NCBI RefSeq assembly: GCF_003334335.1
Contig: NZ_QOWQ01000015.1
Direction: 5' to 3' (one strand)
Length of the DNA stretch: 64,000 bases
Origin: Escherichia coli
GTDB lineage: Bacteria > Pseudomonadota > Gammaproteobacteria > Enterobacterales > Enterobacteriaceae
Shown here: in pieces, positions 6,243 through 45,000 of the stretch
How positions within the stretch are numbered: the first letter of the stretch is position 1
How the letters are laid out: each line of letters begins with the position of its first letter
Position numbers and translations under genes: made by a program
The notes under the pieces: model-generated
Seen by the model: only the letters and a program-made list of their open reading frames with translations
Databases searched by the model: none
Told to the model about the DNA's origin: nothing

Positions 6243-9029
6243 ATGGTTCAGATCCCCCAAAATCCACTTATCCTTGTAGATGGTTCATCTTATCTTTATC
6301 GCGCATATCACGCGTTTCCCCCGCTGACTAACAGCGCAGGCGAGCCGACCGGTGCGATGTATGGTGTCCTCAACATGCTGCGCAGTCTGATCATGCAATA
6401 TAAACCGACGCATGCAGCGGTGGTCTTTGACGCCAAGGGAAAAACCTTTCGTGATGAACTGTTTGAACATTACAAATCACATCGCCCGCCAATGCCGGAC
6501 GATCTGCGTGCACAAATCGAACCCTTGCACGCGATGGTTAAAGCGATGGGACTGCCGCTGCTGGCGGTTTCTGGCGTAGAAGCGGACGACGTTATCGGTA
6601 CTCTGGCGCGCGAAGCCGAAAAAGCCGGGCGTCCGGTGCTGATCAGCACTGGCGATAAAGATATGGCGCAGCTGGTGACGCCAAATATTACGCTTATCAA
6701 TACCATGACGAATACCATCCTCGGACCGGAAGAGGTGGTGAATAAGTACGGCGTGCCGCCAGAACTGATCATCGATTTCCTGGCGCTGATGGGTGACTCC
6801 TCTGATAACATTCCTGGCGTACCGGGCGTCGGTGAAAAAACCGCGCAGGCATTGCTGCAAGGTCTTGGCGGACTGGATACGCTGTATGCCGAGCCAGAAA
6901 AAATTGCTGGGTTGAGCTTCCGTGGCGCGAAAACAATGGCAGCGAAGCTCGAGCAAAACAAAGAAGTTGCTTATCTCTCATACCAGCTGGCGACGATTAA
7001 AACCGACGTTGAACTGGAGCTGACCTGTGAACAACTGGAAGTGCAGCAACCGGCAGCGGAAGAGTTGTTGGGGCTGTTCAAAAAGTATGAGTTCAAACGC
7101 TGGACTGCTGATGTCGAAGCGGGCAAATGGTTACAGGCCAAAGGGGCAAAACCAGCCGCGAAGCCACAGGAAACCAGTGTTGCAGACGAAGCACCAGAAG
7201 TGACGGCAACGGTGATTTCTTATGACAACTACGTCACCATCCTTGATGAAGAAACACTGAAAGCGTGGATTGCGAAGCTGGAAAAAGCGCCGGTATTTGC
7301 ATTTGATACCGAAACCGACAGCCTTGATAACATCTCTGCTAACCTGGTCGGGCTTTCTTTTGCTATCGAGCCAGGCGTAGCGGCATATATTCCGGTTGCT
7401 CATGATTATCTTGATGCGCCCGATCAAATCTCTCGCGAGCGTGCACTCGAGTTGCTAAAACCGCTGCTGGAAGATGAAAAGGCGCTGAAGGTCGGGCAAA
7501 ACCTGAAATACGATCGCGGTATTCTGGCGAACTACGGCATTGAACTGCGTGGGATTGCGTTTGATACCATGCTGGAGTCCTACATTCTCAATAGCGTTGC
7601 CGGGCGTCACGATATGGACAGCCTCGCGGAACGTTGGTTGAAGCACAAAACCATCACTTTTGAAGAGATTGCTGGTAAAGGCAAAAATCAACTGACCTTT
7701 AACCAGATTGCCCTCGAAGAAGCCGGACGTTACGCCGCCGAAGATGCAGATGTCACCTTGCAGTTGCATCTGAAAATGTGGCCGGATCTGCAAAAACACA
7801 AAGGGCCGTTGAACGTCTTCGAGAATATCGAAATGCCGCTGGTGCCGGTGCTTTCACGCATTGAACGTAACGGTGTGAAGATCGATCCGAAAGTGCTGCA
7901 CAATCATTCTGAAGAGCTCACCCTTCGTCTGGCTGAGCTGGAAAAGAAAGCGCATGAAATTGCAGGTGAGGAATTTAACCTTTCTTCCACCAAGCAGTTA
8001 CAAACCATTCTCTTTGAAAAACAGGGCATTAAACCGCTGAAGAAAACGCCGGGTGGCGCGCCGTCAACGTCGGAAGAGGTACTGGAAGAACTGGCGCTGG
8101 ACTATCCGTTGCCAAAAGTGATTCTGGAGTATCGTGGTCTGGCGAAGCTGAAATCGACCTACACCGACAAGCTGCCGCTGATGATCAACCCGAAAACCGG
8201 GCGTGTGCATACCTCTTATCACCAGGCAGTAACTGCAACGGGACGTTTATCGTCAACCGATCCTAACCTGCAAAACATTCCGGTGCGTAACGAAGAAGGT
8301 CGTCGTATCCGCCAGGCGTTTATTGCGCCAGAGGATTATGTGATTGTCTCAGCGGACTACTCGCAGATTGAACTGCGCATTATGGCGCATCTTTCGCGTG
8401 ACAAAGGCTTGCTGACCGCATTCGCGGAAGGAAAAGATATCCACCGGGCAACGGCGGCAGAAGTGTTTGGTTTGCCACTGGAAACCGTCACCAGCGAGCA
8501 ACGCCGTAGCGCGAAAGCGATCAACTTTGGTCTGATTTATGGCATGAGTGCTTTCGGTCTGGCGCGGCAATTGAACATTCCACGTAAAGAAGCGCAGAAG
8601 TACATGGACCTTTACTTCGAACGCTACCCTGGCGTGCTGGAGTATATGGAACGCACCCGTGCTCAGGCGAAAGAGCAGGGCTACGTTGAAACGCTGGACG
8701 GACGCCGTCTGTATCTGCCGGATATCAAATCCAGCAATGGTGCTCGTCGTGCAGCGGCTGAACGTGCAGCCATTAACGCGCCAATGCAGGGAACCGCCGC
8801 CGACATTATCAAACGGGCGATGATTGCCGTTGATGCGTGGTTACAGGCTGAGCAACCGCGTGTACGTATGATCATGCAGGTACACGATGAACTGGTATTT
8901 GAAGTTCATAAAGATGATGTTGATGCCGTCGCGAAGCAGATTCATCAACTGATGGAAAACTGTACCCGTCTGGATGTGCCGTTGCTGGTGGAAGTGGGGA
9001 GTGGCGAAAACTGGGATCAGGCGCACTAA
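6243..9029 (+). CDS. polA: DNA polymerase I
   Basis: 928-aa ORF; 5'-3' exonuclease N-terminal domain, 3'-5' exonuclease (FDTETDSL), polymerase motifs [27 protein letters not shown]; recognised by recall. Confidence 0.98.
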
Positions 9030-9175
9030 GATTCGCCTGAACATGCCTTTTTTCGTAAGTAAGCAACATAAGCTGTCACGTTTTGTGATGGCTATTAGAA
9101 ATTCCTATGCAACAACTGAAAAAAAATTACAAAAAGTGCTTTCTGAACTGAACAAAAAAGAGTAAAGTTAGTCGC

Positions 9176-9284
9176 GTAGGGTACAGAGGTAAGATGTTCT
9201 ATCTTTCAGACCTTTTACTTCACGTAATCGGATTTGGCTGAATATTTTAGCCGCCCCAGTCAGTAATGACTGGGGCGTTTTTTA
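9176..9284 (+). ncRNA. spf: Spot 42 small regulatory RNA
   Basis: Sequence GTAGGGTACAGAGGTAAGATGTTCTATCTTTCAGACC...GCCGCCCCAGTCAGTAATGACTGGGGCGTTTTTTA matches Spot 42 from recall; ends in an intrinsic terminator. Confidence 0.92.
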
Positions 9285-9409
9285 TTGGGCGAAAGAAAAG
9301 ATCCGTAATGCCTGATGCGCTATGTTTATCAGGCCAACGGTAGAATTGTAATCTATTGAATTTACGGGCCGGATACGCCACATCCGGCACAAGCATTAAG
9401 GCAAGAAAA

Positions 9410-10042
9410 TTATTCGCCGTCCTGCGTTTCTTCTACAGGCTGCATCTCGCTAAACCAGGTATCCAGTTTCTGCCGCAGCTTGTCCACGCCTTGTTTCTTC
9501 AACGAAGAAAACGTTTCAACCTGCACATCACCGTTAAACGCCAGTACAGCTTCACGCACCATATTCAATTGCGCTTTACGTGCGCCGCTTGCCAGTTTGT
9601 CCGCTTTGGTCAGCAGCACCAGAACGGCGATATTGCTGTCTACCGCCCACTCAATCATCTGCTGATCCAAATCTTTCAGCGGATGGCGAATATCCATTAG
9701 CACCACCAGACCTTGCAGGCTCTGACGTTTTTCGAGGTATTCGCCGAGCGCACGCTGCCATTTGCGCTTCATCTCTTCCGGGACTTCCGCATAACCGTAC
9801 CCAGGCAAGTCAACCAGACGCTTGCCGTCAGCCACTTCAAACAGGTTGATAAGCTGGGTGCGCCCTGGGGTTTTTGAGGTACGAGCCAGGCTTTTCTGGT
9901 TAGTCAGCGTGTTCAGCGCGCTGGATTTACCTGCGTTGGAACGGCCTGCAAAAGCCACTTCAATTCCGGTATCGGAAGGTAGGTGGCGAATATCAGGCGC
10001 ACTCATCACAAAATGCGTCTGTTGATAATTCAAATTAGTCAA
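9410..10042 (-). CDS. engB: Ribosome biogenesis GTP-binding protein EngB (YihA)
   Basis: 210-aa ORF; G1 motif [15 protein letters not shown] switch region; recognised by recall. Confidence 0.95.
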
Positions 10043-10312
10043 AGCGGTCGTCTCCGTCAGTCAAAGCTTTGTGGCGATTATACCTGAACCATAATAAAAG
10101 GCGGATTTTTCGGCGTGAGCGTTGTAAGTAAAAGCCATACGCTTTGTGAGACATTGCCGATAGTCTTTATGCGAAATAGCAGAGAAAATTCTGCGATGCA
10201 TGTCAAATAAGCTATATAAATCAGTGAATTGCTTTTATATAAAACTCTGAAAATGTGCAAATACTGATGGCGGTTGATTGTTTGTTTAAAGCAAAGGCGT
10301 AAAGTAGCACCC

Positions 10313-10556
10313 ATAGAGCGAGGACGCTAACAGGAACAATGACTCAGGATGAGGGTCAGGAGCGCCAGGAGGCGAAGACAGAGGATTGTCAGGAAGACAA
10401 ACGTCCGGAGACGTAATTAAACGGAAATGGAATCAACACGGATTGTTCCGGCTAAAGGAAAAACAGGGTGTGTTGGCGGCCTGCAAGGATTGTAAGACCC
10501 GTTAAGGGTTATGAGTCAGGAAAAAAGGCGACAGAGTAATCTGTCGCCTTTTTTCT
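10313..10556 (+). ncRNA. csrC: CsrC, CsrA-sequestering small RNA
   Basis: About 245 nt with at least 13 GGA/AGGA motifs on the + strand and a 3' hairpin aggcgacagagtaatctgtcgcct plus T-run (10525-10554); matches CsrC by recall; ends are approximate. Confidence 0.85.
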
Positions 10557-10623
10557 TTGCTTGCTTTCTGTTAGATTCCGCCGCAAATCTATACTGAATA
10601 AAACGGCTAAAAGACGAACCATT

Positions 10624-12805: not shown

Positions 12806-12890
12806 TGTAGGCCGGATAAGGCGTTTACGCCGCATCAGGCATCTGAGCATGATGCCTGATGCGGCGCTGGTCGCGTCTTATCAGGCCTAC
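12806..12890. repeat. REP/BIME element pair
   Basis: Canonical REP motifs gtaggccggataaggcgtttacgccgcatcaggc and gcctgatgcggcgctggtcgcgtcttatcaggcctac in inverted orientation. Confidence 0.9.
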
Positions 12891-17443: not shown

Positions 17444-17532
17444 CGCACCATCGTGCAAAAGGGCTGCACCACGATGTGAATGTTGCACCAATATAGTGCT
17501 TCAATGGAAACATTAAGCACCATGTTGGTGCA
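17444..17532 (-). promoter_or_regulatory. NtrC (NR-I) enhancer binding sites upstream of glnAp2
   Basis: Palindromes GCACCATGTTGGTGCA (17517-17532), TGCACCAATATAGTGCT (17484-17500) and GCACCATCGTGC (17444-17455), centred about -140, -108 and lower relative to the sigma-54 promoter. Confidence 0.75.
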
Positions 17533-17683
17533 ATGACCTTTGGATAACCCTTTTTATGCTCCGTGAAAGCGATCACAAAGGGACTCTGCAATACTTGTTT
17601 GCGGAGGATGTTTGTGATCCTGTTTTGTAGTGCGATTAATCCGTGTACAATAACGCGCTATTTCTAATGCCTGAGGCAAAGTT

Positions 17684-19507
17684 GTGATCGAAAAATTGCG
17701 TAATATCGCCATCATCGCGCACGTAGACCATGGTAAAACCACCCTGGTAGACAAGCTGCTCCAACAATCCGGTACGTTCGACTCTCGTGCCGAAACCCAA
17801 GAGCGCGTGATGGACTCCAACGATTTGGAGAAAGAGCGTGGGATTACCATCCTCGCGAAAAACACCGCTATCAAATGGAATGATTACCGTATCAACATCG
17901 TTGATACCCCGGGGCACGCCGACTTCGGTGGTGAAGTTGAACGTGTAATGTCCATGGTAGACTCAGTGCTGCTGGTGGTTGACGCATTTGACGGCCCGAT
18001 GCCGCAAACGCGCTTCGTAACCAAAAAAGCGTTTGCTTACGGCCTGAAGCCGATTGTTGTTATCAACAAAGTTGACCGCCCTGGCGCGCGTCCTGATTGG
18101 GTTGTGGATCAGGTATTCGATCTGTTCGTTAACCTCGACGCGACCGACGAGCAGCTGGACTTCCCGATCGTTTACGCTTCTGCGCTGAACGGTATCGCGG
18201 GTCTGGACCACGAAGATATGGCGGAAGACATGACCCCGCTGTACCAGGCGATTGTTGACCACGTTCCTGCGCCGGACGTTGACCTTGACGGTCCGTTCCA
18301 GATGCAGATTTCTCAGCTCGATTACAACAGCTATGTTGGCGTTATCGGCATTGGCCGCATCAAGCGCGGTAAAGTGAAGCCGAACCAGCAGGTCACTATC
18401 ATCGATAGCGAAGGCAAAACCCGCAACGCGAAAGTCGGTAAAGTGCTGGGCCACCTCGGTCTGGAACGTATCGAAACCGATCTGGCGGAAGCTGGCGATA
18501 TCGTTGCGATCACGGGCCTTGGCGAACTGAACATTTCTGACACCGTTTGCGACACGCAAAACGTTGAAGCGCTGCCGGCACTCTCCGTTGATGAGCCGAC
18601 CGTTTCTATGTTCTTCTGCGTTAACACCTCGCCGTTCTGCGGTAAAGAAGGTAAGTTCGTAACGTCTCGTCAGATCCTGGATCGTCTGAACAAAGAACTG
18701 GTACACAACGTTGCGCTGCGCGTAGAAGAAACCGAAGACGCCGATGCGTTCCGCGTTTCTGGTCGTGGCGAACTGCACCTGTCTGTTCTGATCGAAAACA
18801 TGCGTCGTGAAGGTTTCGAACTGGCGGTATCCCGTCCGAAAGTTATCTTCCGTGAAATCGACGGTCGTAAACAAGAGCCGTATGAAAACGTGACTCTGGA
18901 CGTTGAAGAACAGCATCAGGGTTCTGTAATGCAGGCGCTGGGCGAACGTAAAGGCGACCTGAAAAACATGAATCCAGACGGTAAAGGCCGCGTACGTCTC
19001 GACTACGTGATCCCAAGCCGTGGTCTGATTGGCTTCCGTTCTGAGTTCATGACCATGACTTCCGGTACTGGTCTGCTGTACTCCACCTTCAGCCACTACG
19101 ACGACGTACGTCCGGGTGAAGTGGGTCAGCGTCAGAACGGCGTACTGATCTCTAACGGTCAGGGTAAAGCGGTCGCGTTCGCGCTGTTCGGTCTGCAGGA
19201 TCGCGGTAAGCTGTTCCTCGGTCACGGTGCAGAAGTTTACGAAGGTCAGATTATCGGTATTCATAGCCGCTCTAACGACCTGACTGTAAACTGCCTGACC
19301 GGTAAGAAACTGACCAACATGCGTGCTTCCGGTACTGACGAAGCCGTTGTTCTGGTTCCGCCTATCCGCATGACTCTGGAACAAGCTCTGGAGTTCATCG
19401 ATGATGACGAACTGGTAGAAGTGACTCCGACCTCTATCCGTATTCGTAAACGTCACCTGACGGAAAACGATCGTCGCCGCGCCAACCGCGCACCGAAAGA
19501 CGATTAA
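17684..19507 (+). CDS. typA: Ribosome-dependent translational GTPase TypA/BipA
   Basis: 607-aa ORF with GTG start at 17684 and GAGG Shine-Dalgarno at 17672-17675; G motifs [18 protein letters not shown]; recognised by recall. Confidence 0.95.
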
Positions 19508-19524
19508 TTTCGTTTTTTAGTCAT

Positions 19525-19557
19525 AAAAAACCTGCCAGCGATGGCAGGTTTTTTTTT
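19525..19557 (+). terminator. Rho-independent terminator after typA
   Basis: Hairpin cctgccagcgatggcagg flanked by A-run and followed by T9. Confidence 0.85.
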
Positions 19558-19723
19558 GCCTGTCGTGAGCGCACACCAATGCGAGTATCTCCCTTATAAG
19601 TCTGTGGTTACGTCAATAGAGAGCTTTGTCACAATTATCTGCAAAGTCATACGCCGTTAATTGCTTTCTTTTTTGGCGTAAGCGTAAGATGCTTCATCTG
19701 GTTTAAACCAAAAGGATTAAACA

Positions 19724-42048: not shown

Positions 42049-45000
42049 TTACACCTTTTCCACATTCACAAGGAAGGACTTAAACTCCGGCGTCTGCGTG
42101 TTCGCATCACCAACGAATGGCGTTAAAGTATTGGCAATAAAGCCTTTTTTAGCTACGCCTTCATAGCCCCAGTGAATCGGAATACCGATGGTATCGATAT
42201 CTTTGCCGTTCGCTTTCAGCGTGCGAATACGTTTGGTCACCACCGCTTTGGCTTTGATATAGCCACGGTTGGAGGAGACTTTCACGGTATCGCCCTGGGC
42301 AATGCCAAGTTTATTCGCCAGCGACTCCCCGATTTCCACAAACTGCTCTGGCTGCAAAATCGCGTTCAACAGCGCGTGTTTGGTCCAGTAGTGGAAGTGC
42401 TCGGTCAGACGATAGGTGGTTCCGACATACGGGAACTTATCGGCTTTACCCAATGCTTCGGCGTCGTCTTTAAAGATACGTGCAGCCGGGTTCGAGATAA
42501 CGTTTGGATGCAGCGGGTTAGTTCCCAGCGGCGTTTCAAACGGCTCGTAGTGTTCCGGGAACGGACCTTCCGCCATCTTATCGAGGGCAAACAGACGCCC
42601 CATGCCTTCCTGCTGCATGATAAACGGCCCGACGCCGCTACCCGGAGGCGCTGCGCTGTAGTCCGGAATATCCCAGCCGGTCCACTTAGTGCCGTCCCAT
42701 TTCAGCAACTGACGCTTCGGATCCCACGGGTTACCCTGCGGATCTGCGGAGGCGCGGTTATACAGAATGCGGCGGTTAAGCGGCCATGCCCATGCCCAGC
42801 CCAGCGTGTTACCGAGGCCAGACGGATCGGCGTTATCACGGCGTGCCATCTGGTTGCCTTCCGGCGTCCAGCTACCGGCGAAAATCCAGCAGCCACAGGA
42901 GGTTGTACCGTCATCGCGCAATTGGGCGAACGAACTAAGTTGTTGGCCTTTCTTGACGATAACCGCACCGGTTGCCGGATCGGTAATATCGGCCAGCGCC
43001 TTACCGTTGCTCTCCATCGCCACTTCTTCTGAAGATGGCTCATGCGGAATGGCGTAGTTCCATGTCATGTTCAGCACCTGGTCCGGGTTCGCGCCACCCT
43101 GTTCGGCATACATCTTGCGCAAGCGCAGGAAGATACCGGAGAGGATCTCGCCGTCAGTCAGCGCAATCCCCGGGGCGTCCGCACCTTTCCAGTGCCACTG
43201 TAACCAGCGACCTGAGTTAACGATAGAACCGTTCTCTTCCGCGAAGCAGGTCGATGGCAGACGGAACACTTCGGTCTGGATCTTCGACGAGTCAACTTCG
43301 TTCAGCTCACCGTGGTTCTGCCAGAAGTTAGAGGTTTCAGTGTTCAGTGGGTCGATGGTGACGAGGAACTTCAGTTTCGACAGACAACCGATCACTTTGT
43401 TTTTGTTCGGGAATGAGGCAACAGGGTTAAAGCCCTGGCAGATATAGCCATTGACCTTGCCCTCTTTCATCATCTCGAAGTATTGCAGGACGTCGTAGCC
43501 TTTATCCCACTTCGGCAACCAGTCAAAGCCCCAGCTATTTTCCGCCGTCGCTTTATCACCAAAGAAGGCCTTCATCATAGAGACGAAGAATTTCGGGTAG
43601 TTGCCCCAGTAGTTTACCTGGCCTTCCAGCAGCGGTTTTGGCGTGTTGGCGGTAAGGTAGGTTTGCAGATCGGTCTGCTTCTCGCTTGGCAGCGTCATGT
43701 AACCTGGCAGGCTCTGCGACAGCAGCCCCAGGTCCGTCAGCCCCTGAATATTGGAGTGACCGCGCAGGGCGTTAACGCCGCCGCCTGCCATCCCCATATT
43801 GCCGAGCAGCAGCTGGATCATCGCCATCGTACGAATGTTTTGCGCACCAACGGAGTGTTGCGTCCAGCCGAGGGCATACAGGAACGAGGCAGTTTTATCG
43901 TGAGCACTGGTTTCTGCGATGTATTCGCAGACTTTCAGGAACGCGTCTTTTGGCGTACCACAGATGTTTTCAACCACATCTGGCGTGTAGCGGGAAACGT
44001 GCTGTTTCAGCAAGTTCCACACGCAGCGCGGATGTTGCAGCGTGGTATCGCGTTTGGCGAAGCCGTTTTCGTCCAGTTCATAAGTCCAGGAGGATTTATC
44101 GTACTTGCGTTTTTCCGCGTCGTAGCCGGTGAACAGGCCATCTTCAAAGCCGTAATCCTCACGCACGATCAGGCTGGCGTTGGTATAGGCTTCGGTGTAT
44201 TCGCGGTTGAATTTTTCATTGTTCAGCAGGTACAGCAATACGCCTGACAGGAAAGCAATGTCAGTACCGGAACGAATAGGGGCATAGTAGTCAGCTACCG
44301 CCGCCGTACGCGTAAAGCGAGGATCGATCACAATCAGCTTCGCGCCGTTGTGAATTTTGGCTTCCATCGCCCAGCGGAACCCGACCGGGTGAGCTTCAGC
44401 GGCGTTACCGCCCATCACCACGACGAGGTTGGCGTTCTTGATGTCGACCCAGTGGTTGGTCATCGCACCGCGACCAAATGTTGGAGCAAGACTTGCTACC
44501 GTTGGTCCGTGTCAGACACGCGCCTGGTTGTCGACCGCGAGCATACCCAGCGCGCGGGAGAATTTTTGCGTTAAATAGCCGGTTTCGTTACTCGACGCGG
44601 AAGCACACAGCATCCCGGTGGAGAGCCAGCGGTTAACAGTCACGCCTTCGGCGTTTTGCGCAATGTAGTTAGCATCGCGGTCTTCTTTCATCAGTTTGGC
44701 GATGCGATCAAACGCCTCTTCCCAACTGATTTGCTGCCATTTATCAGAACCTGGCGCACGGTATTCCGGAAACTTCAGACGGCTTTCGGAGTGGATGAAA
44801 TCCACCAGGCCAGCGCCTTTCGGACAAAGTGCACCGCGGTTGACCGGGTGATCCGGATCGCCTTCGATATGGAAGATAGATGCTTTGGCGTTTTTTGCTC
44901 CGTCACCGAGGCTGTACATCAACAGCCCACAGCCTACGGAACAATAGGTGCAGGTATTACGGGTTTCGCGGGTGCGCAGCAGTTTATACTGCCGGGTTTC

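Follow-up and report, generated by a model that had tools for sequence, protein, structure and literature searches.

Few bacterial small RNAs were described as early, or have been studied as well, as Spot 42, the product of the spf gene. In the literature it is 109 nt long (PMC8916003) and Hfq-dependent (PMC8916003, PMC5991649), and it is abundant in glucose because cAMP-CRP represses spf transcription (PMC8916003, PMC5991649, PMC7591399). Two papers (PMC8916003; PMC8577784) describe Hfq-assisted pairing at the galK start, which leads to discoordinate expression of the gal operon, and repression by pairing of many other mRNAs that serve the use of non-preferred carbon sources; together with CRP, this makes up a feed-forward loop. 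The RNA also has a coding function. Aoyama et al. 2022 found that a small protein, SpfP, is translated from it, binds CRP and blocks activation at promoters such as galE P1. Its start codon lies within stem-loop 1, His10 is critical for its function, and it acts more strongly at 42 degrees C, as the stem hiding the ribosome-binding site opens (PMC8916003). The gene order polA-spf-yihA was described by Hansen et al. (PMC3295665).

CyaR, the dual-function SgrS/SgrT and Vibrio cholerae VcdRP are other CRP-controlled, Hfq-dependent small RNAs of carbon metabolism (PMC8916003; PMC8672173). Like Spot 42, they are tied to a global regulator through a feed-forward loop, and some come with a small protein of the same pathway. 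However, the sequences and loci of CyaR, SgrS and VcdRP are unrelated to spf, CyaR is activated by CRP whereas Spot 42 is repressed by it, and none of the three gave an Rfam match in this region.

The locus described here lies in a 64,000-nt stretch of Escherichia coli DNA (contig NZ_QOWQ01000015.1), the whole of which is called the window and numbered from its first letter. It has the same sequence, coordinates, structure, neighbours and promoter elements as Spot 42 RNA (RF00021; EcoGene b3864), the sole difference being a RefSeq 3' end placed 2 nt further. It also encodes the same 15 residues as SpfP (b4837, WP_071892919.1), with His10 and a start codon in stem-loop 1. The gene and its neighbours are as follows.

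6243..9029, + strand: polA (DNA polymerase I), 928 codons, upstream neighbour (ORF, RefSeq annotation)
9176..9284, + strand: spf, Spot 42 RNA, 109 nt (Rfam 122.8 bits, RefSeq annotation, conservation in E. coli)
9194..9241, + strand: spfP, 15 codons and stop, MFYLSDLLLHVIGFG (translation; RefSeq b4837, WP_071892919.1)
9410..10042, - strand: yihA/engB, convergent downstream neighbour (ORF, RefSeq annotation)
10313-10566, + strand: CsrC small RNA, 1.1 kb downstream of spf, beyond yihA (Rfam 278.7 bits; RefSeq csrC b4457 at 10313-10558)

Identification of spf

The whole window was scanned against Rfam 15. The Spot_42 model RF00021, whose gathering score is 80 bits, matched positions 9166-9284 (+) over its full length (model 1-115) at 122.8 bits (E = 3.6e-24). 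The 10 extra nucleotides at the 5' end of this match are promoter-proximal bases included in the Rfam seed and lie outside the RNA. The RNA itself begins with GTAGGGTACAGAGG and ends with GGGGCGTTTTTTA; GTAGGG starts with the G at 9176, and the A that follows the U-run stands at 9284. The 551 nt around the gene (8900-9450) are 100% identical to E. coli K-12 MG1655. In the record of that strain, NC_000913.3, the ncRNA spf (b3864) is annotated at 4049899-4050009, equivalent to 9176-9286 of the window, with a start identical to 9176; that this feature has 111 nt, and the RNA of the literature 109, comes down to where the U-rich 3' end is placed and is trivial. The features annotated here in NC_000913.3 are polA (b3863), spf (b3864), spfP (b4837), yihA (b3865) and csrC (b4457). 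In many PGAP-annotated E. coli records spf is without any feature, and spfP is present in some only.

A first-pass annotation made from the sequence had recognised Spot 42 in these 109 nt, immediately downstream of polA, and had named the Rfam covariance model as the way to check it. The score against the threshold, the identity to MG1655 and the RefSeq feature b3864 bear out the identification, the Rfam match and the sequence confirm the span, and the 928-codon polA ORF with its RefSeq annotation confirms the location. The one point on which that description was incomplete is the SpfP coding function, which it omitted. Nothing was found at odds with Spot 42, and we regard it as virtually certain that the spf gene of E. 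coli K-12 occupies 9176-9284 (+), with both the Spot 42 RNA and the SpfP functions. It is thus a textbook gene, already known, and the type member of Spot 42 itself.

Conservation and synteny

The region 8900-9450 occurs in one copy in each of 5426 complete E. coli genomes. The 109 nt of spf are at least 99% identical in 5425 of the 5426; variation is greater in the 146-nt promoter region, from the polA stop at 9029 to the spf start, where 1576 genomes fall into the 95-99% identity band. Plasmid-labelled records account for two of the 5426 copies of the polA-spf-yihA region; these may be mislabelled replicons.

The single complete E. coli genome without spf is that of ST2747 (NZ_CP007394.1 15529-15626; locus L129), where polA, flagged as frameshifted, abuts a yihA without its C-terminus and the entire intergenic region is gone. 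Since yihA/engB is regarded as essential, this loss is more suggestive of a faulty assembly than of a natural deletion.

When 100,044 species genomes were scanned with a 25-nt seed from stem-loop 1 (spf nt 13-37), at least 120 loci were found. Those among the matches listed belong to the Enterobacterales, Vibrionales, Aeromonadales and Alteromonadales. Among these matches, a coding sequence for the PolA C-terminus precedes spf on the same strand in 106 of 120 species, and one for YihA follows it on the opposite strand in about 100 of 120, the flanking DNA of most remaining loci being too short to judge.

Bowmanella denitrificans (L092, 993-1076, - strand) carries a truncated Spot 42-like gene of about 73 nt between polA and yihA. 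What remains is stem-loop 1, seed included, and a terminator immediately after it; region III, stem-loop 2 and the SpfP frame are absent. Its Rfam score of 52.9 bits falls short of the threshold of 80, and its fold has a z of -3.66.

RNA structure and terminator

The minimum free energy (MFE) structure predicted for the 109-nt RNA has three hairpins and a free energy of -40.6 kcal/mol. Shuffled versions average -23.1 +/- 3.4 kcal/mol (z = -5.08), and none of 200 was as stable. The elements of the structure are as follows.

9176..9223, + strand: stem-loop 1, nt 1-48, 19 pairs (MFE fold)
9224..9235, + strand: single-stranded linker, nt 49-60, putative extent of targeting region III as judged from the fold (unpaired in MFE and centroid structures)
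9236..9252, + strand: stem-loop 2, nt 61-77 (fold)
9252..9283, + strand: intrinsic terminator, stem 9252-9277 and U-run 9278-9283 (scan, inverted repeat, covariation)

Targeting region III of Spot 42 has been described previously (PMC5991649). The terminator stem is a perfect inverted repeat of 11 pairs, 8 of them G-C, followed by TTTTTT, and the terminator scan of 8900-9500 gave no other terminator-like site.

Covariation was counted by placing the MFE structure of the window's RNA on 32 distinct aligned sequences from the listed seed loci, which span the Enterobacterales, Vibrionales, Aeromonadales and Alteromonadales. Standard pairs occupy 99.1% of the cells, against 39-52% when the 3' partner is slid by 1-3 columns, and none of 500 shuffles reached any of the five measures taken. 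Nine pairs are changed on both sides, eight in the terminator and one in stem-loop 2. The terminator shows compensatory changes across genera at 8 of 10 pairs; in stem-loop 2, G61-C77 becomes A-U in 5 of the 32 sequences. That the gene has a terminator of its own, as first proposed, is thus borne out both by the scan and by the compensatory changes.

Stem-loop 1 keeps all 19 pairs in the 32 sequences and shows no compensatory change; 17 pairs never vary and two change on one side to G-U. Covariation is uninformative for this hairpin because divergent homologues without the exact 25-nt seed fall outside the sample, and the invariance of nt 13-37 is likewise uninformative because the search seed fixes it. 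Nucleotides 1-12 and 38-41 lie outside the seed and are also invariant in the 32 sequences, which fits a role in targeting and not just in structure.

Pairing with galK

Duplexes were computed between the window's RNA and the galT-galK junction of MG1655. The full-length duplex with galK has -60.4 kcal/mol, and the start regions of the window's 58 long ORFs all give weaker ones; this calculation ignores intramolecular structure and gives an unrealistically long duplex, and it was repeated with nt 1-62. Paired with galK from -19 to +40, nt 1-62 gave -44.7 kcal/mol, whereas 1000 shuffled galK targets averaged -21.3 +/- 4.1 kcal/mol and none was as good. The core of the interaction is a perfect 9-mer, CUUUCAGAC/GUCUGAAAG, over galK codons 2-5. 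This complementarity agrees with the established model of Spot 42.

The small protein SpfP

Nucleotides 19-66 of the RNA (9194-9241) read ATG TTC TAT ... GGC TGA and encode an intact 15-residue peptide with His at residue 10. As 15 residues are too short for protein-family tools, its identity as SpfP rests on the exact RefSeq match. In the MFE fold, the GAGG and the AUG of spfP are predicted to lie inside the paired nt 10-21, consistent with a hidden ribosome-binding site. Among the matches listed, 114 of 120 species loci have the ORF at its full 15 codons. The others are the following.

Neiella (L090, L112), 2 of 120 listed loci: 13 codons, version MFYLSDLLVHVIE, His10 kept
Vibrio ruber (L034), 1 of 120 listed loci: stop lost (TGA to TGT), His10 kept
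Bowmanella, 1 of 120 listed loci: frame lost in the truncated RNA
Two of 120 listed loci: ORF incomplete at the end of the sequence

The V. ruber ORF, without its stop, reads on through the terminator. Except in the truncated Bowmanella variant, His10 is invariant in every listed locus with a readable codon 10. This conservation cannot be assigned to coding alone, because the ORF overlaps the base-pairing regions.

It could be argued that the locus is only a tiny SpfP mRNA, its nucleotide conservation reflecting mere coding constraint. SpfP translation and function are published (PMC8916003), the ORF and its His10 are kept as widely as the list above indicates, and three changes inside the ORF (TTA>TTG, GTA>GTT and ATC>ATT) are synonymous. 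However, conservation extends beyond the ORF to the invariant nt 1-12, outside the seed, the 5' half of the RNA is strongly complementary to galK to a degree that no shuffled target matched, and the Bowmanella variant keeps stem-loop 1 and the terminator when the SpfP frame is gone. Moreover, base pairing has been separated genetically from coding, and Spot 42-STOP, an spfP stop mutant, is reported still to repress galK (PMC8916003). We therefore consider a purely coding locus extremely improbable and retain Spot 42 as an RNA with both functions.

Promoter and CRP site

The consensus sigma-70 scan of 8900-9500 gave no promoter scoring 9/12 or better, because the -35 element of spf is poor, and the promoter was placed via the literature and conservation. 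The following elements were recognised upstream of the RNA, together with a conserved block and an open reading frame that are discussed below.

8974..9165, + strand: 63-codon ORF with ATG start, not a gene (ORF track, translation)
9054..9070, strand not assigned: conserved block GTAAGTAAGCAACATAA, 17 nt, -122..-106 (alignment of 29 upstream sequences)
9081..9102, + strand: published CRP-binding site TTTTGTGATGGCTATTAGAAAT (PMC3295665, citing Polayes 1988)
9117..9136, + strand: A-rich block TGAAAAAAAATTACAAAAAG, putatively UP-element-like (conservation)
9140..9145, + strand: putative weak -35-like TTTCTG, 17 bp before the -10 (sequence)
9163..9168, + strand: -10 hexamer TAAAGT (sequence, conservation)

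The -10 hexamer occupies positions -13 to -8. It is strongly conserved in 29 Enterobacteriaceae upstream sequences, and 75 of 118 loci among the matches listed have TA[AG]AGT at the fixed position -13. The A-rich block is also strongly conserved in the 29 sequences; among the matches listed, an ACAAAAA-type motif at -47/-46 is present in 88 of 118 loci and a GAAAAAA-type motif at -58/-57 in 58 of 118. From its position upstream of the -35 we infer that this block is UP-element-like.

The 22-bp sequence given as the E. coli CRP site is present in the window with its centre at -84.5, and by this match it is the predicted operator of the locus. Its core 16-mer (9084-9099) has two mismatches to TGTGAN6TCACA, and the TGTGA half, TTTTGTGA, is invariant in the 29 Enterobacteriaceae upstream sequences from the listed loci. 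With up to three mismatches allowed, the TGTGAN6TCACA scan is uninformative genome-wide because it found 196 matches in the window against 218 expected. At that setting the core 16-mer is the only match inside the spf promoter; it lies outside the core promoter, and the scan gave no second CRP-like box overlapping the core promoter.

In three Enterobacter loci (L007, L028 and L120), inverted repeats of 8-9 bp, e.g. CAGCGGGCT...AGCCCGCTG, were seen by eye to flank a conserved GCAACATA block, and next comes the TTTTGTGA of the CRP box. These repeats could be a polA terminator. No such hairpin was seen by eye upstream of spf in K-12.

Another reading would make Spot 42 a processed fragment of the polA mRNA 3'-UTR, with no gene of its own. 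Between the polA stop and spf no intrinsic terminator was found, and polA read-through could end at the spf terminator; since no other terminator was detected in 8900-9500, we infer that polA transcripts may indeed extend that far. Against this reading as an account of the RNA itself, the -10 stands at a fixed distance from +1 in the many loci noted above and the A-rich blocks upstream of it are conserved too. In Providencia, Photorhabdus and Morganella (L004, L005, L018, L058, L086 and L113), moreover, polA ends 1-3.3 kb upstream and spf is intact; in Aeromonas, spf is present with no polA found upstream; and 5' RACE in A. salmonicida placed the 5' end where it is in E. coli (PMC3295665). An origin of Spot 42 solely by processing of polA mRNA thus deserves hardly any credence, and an independent spf gene remains our reading.

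The 63-codon ORF upstream of spf

The ORF at 8974-9165 starts within the final 56 nt of polA, out of frame with it, and then spans the whole intergenic region. It was judged in the first-pass annotation to lie in the promoter region and to be unlikely to be coding. In O157:H7 and FDAARGOS_1304, an extra C in the GCC run at 9045-9047 (CATGCC to CATGCCC) cuts it to 29 codons. It is broken as well in relatives, with 17 codons in E. albertii and 19 in C. youngae, and also in most Enterobacter, and it is not preserved in other genera; the frameshift within E. coli and the breakage in relatives both support that judgement. From the conserved block through the RNA start, O157:H7 is identical to K-12; one base differs in FDAARGOS_1304. 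The C-run polymorphism, just 3' of the polA stop, sets K-12 apart from O157:H7 and from further E. coli strains.

That a real 63-residue protein is encoded across the polA end and the spf promoter has next to no likelihood: the frame is open and ATG-initiated in K-12 and its 25-codon C-terminal tail recurs in some Citrobacter, Salmonella and Pluralibacter loci, but the frame is interrupted as described, no CDS is annotated at 8974-9165 in any record inspected, and the recurring tail coincides with conserved promoter DNA, an internal ATG (9088) lying within TGTGATG of the CRP box and the TAA stop being the first three bases of the -10 hexamer.

The conserved block at 9054-9070 and other features of the window

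The block at 9054-9070, which can be written GTAAGTAAGCAACATAA or GTAAnTAAGCAACATAA, is strongly conserved in the 29 Enterobacteriaceae sequences. Among the matches listed, its core GCAACAT stands at a fixed distance in 29 of 118 loci, and the block is found in Enterobacteriaceae only; the Vibrionales, Aeromonadales and most other Enterobacterales lack it. It opens with a hexamer that resembles a UvrY/SirA half-site, CGTAAG in K-12 and also TGTAAG. The 18-bp UvrY consensus is TGTAAGN6CTTACA, and a strong ChIP-exo signal of UvrY/SirA at spf is on record for both E. coli and Salmonella (PMC4682653); in Salmonella, SirA was not seen to affect spf expression (PMC7591399). The block was rejected as a canonical UvrY site, for only the first half of the consensus is present and the second is missing. 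We consider it doubtful, if conceivable, that GTAAnTAAGCAACATAA is an uncharacterised operator that could account for the ChIP-exo signal at spf.

In Salmonella, Spot 42 has been reported to raise the levels of CsrC (PMC7591399). In PGAP records csrC is overlapped by a frameshifted 'hypothetical protein' pseudogene at about 10277-10505, probably an artefact of the annotation.

Two REP-like imperfect palindromes, GCCTGATGCG...TATCAGGC at 9310-9334 and GCCGGATACGCCACATCCGGC at 9368-9388, are located between the terminator of spf and the stop of the convergent yihA; their 7-bp arms are under the minimum length of the repeat finder. Elsewhere in the window, further matches above Rfam gathering scores were to the ES222 small RNA, STnc370, SECIS_3 (minus strand) and four copies of naRNA4, which is REP-derived; the ranges of these matches are 17495-17602, 19492-19560, 44459-44517 (-), 12810-12887, 53596-53758 and 62603-62680 (-).

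Proposed mechanism and implications

In the mechanism that we propose, transcription from a sigma-70 promoter of its own to the intrinsic terminator would give the 109-nt Spot 42 RNA. As the literature has it, cAMP-CRP would repress this transcription. With Hfq, the conserved 5' half of the RNA would pair with mRNAs that serve the use of non-preferred carbon sources, above all galK, at the regions where their translation starts; on published grounds, this pairing would lower expression of the targets and form a feed-forward loop with CRP. The same transcript would also act as an mRNA, nt 19-66 encoding the 15-residue SpfP.

For the reading of E. coli genomes, the spurious 63-codon ORF is dropped from consideration, and an annotation-free gap at the polA-yihA site in PGAP records should not count as empty. 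If the conserved block were indeed an operator, it would link spf transcription to the BarA-UvrY/Csr system, whose small RNA CsrC sits 1.1 kb away.
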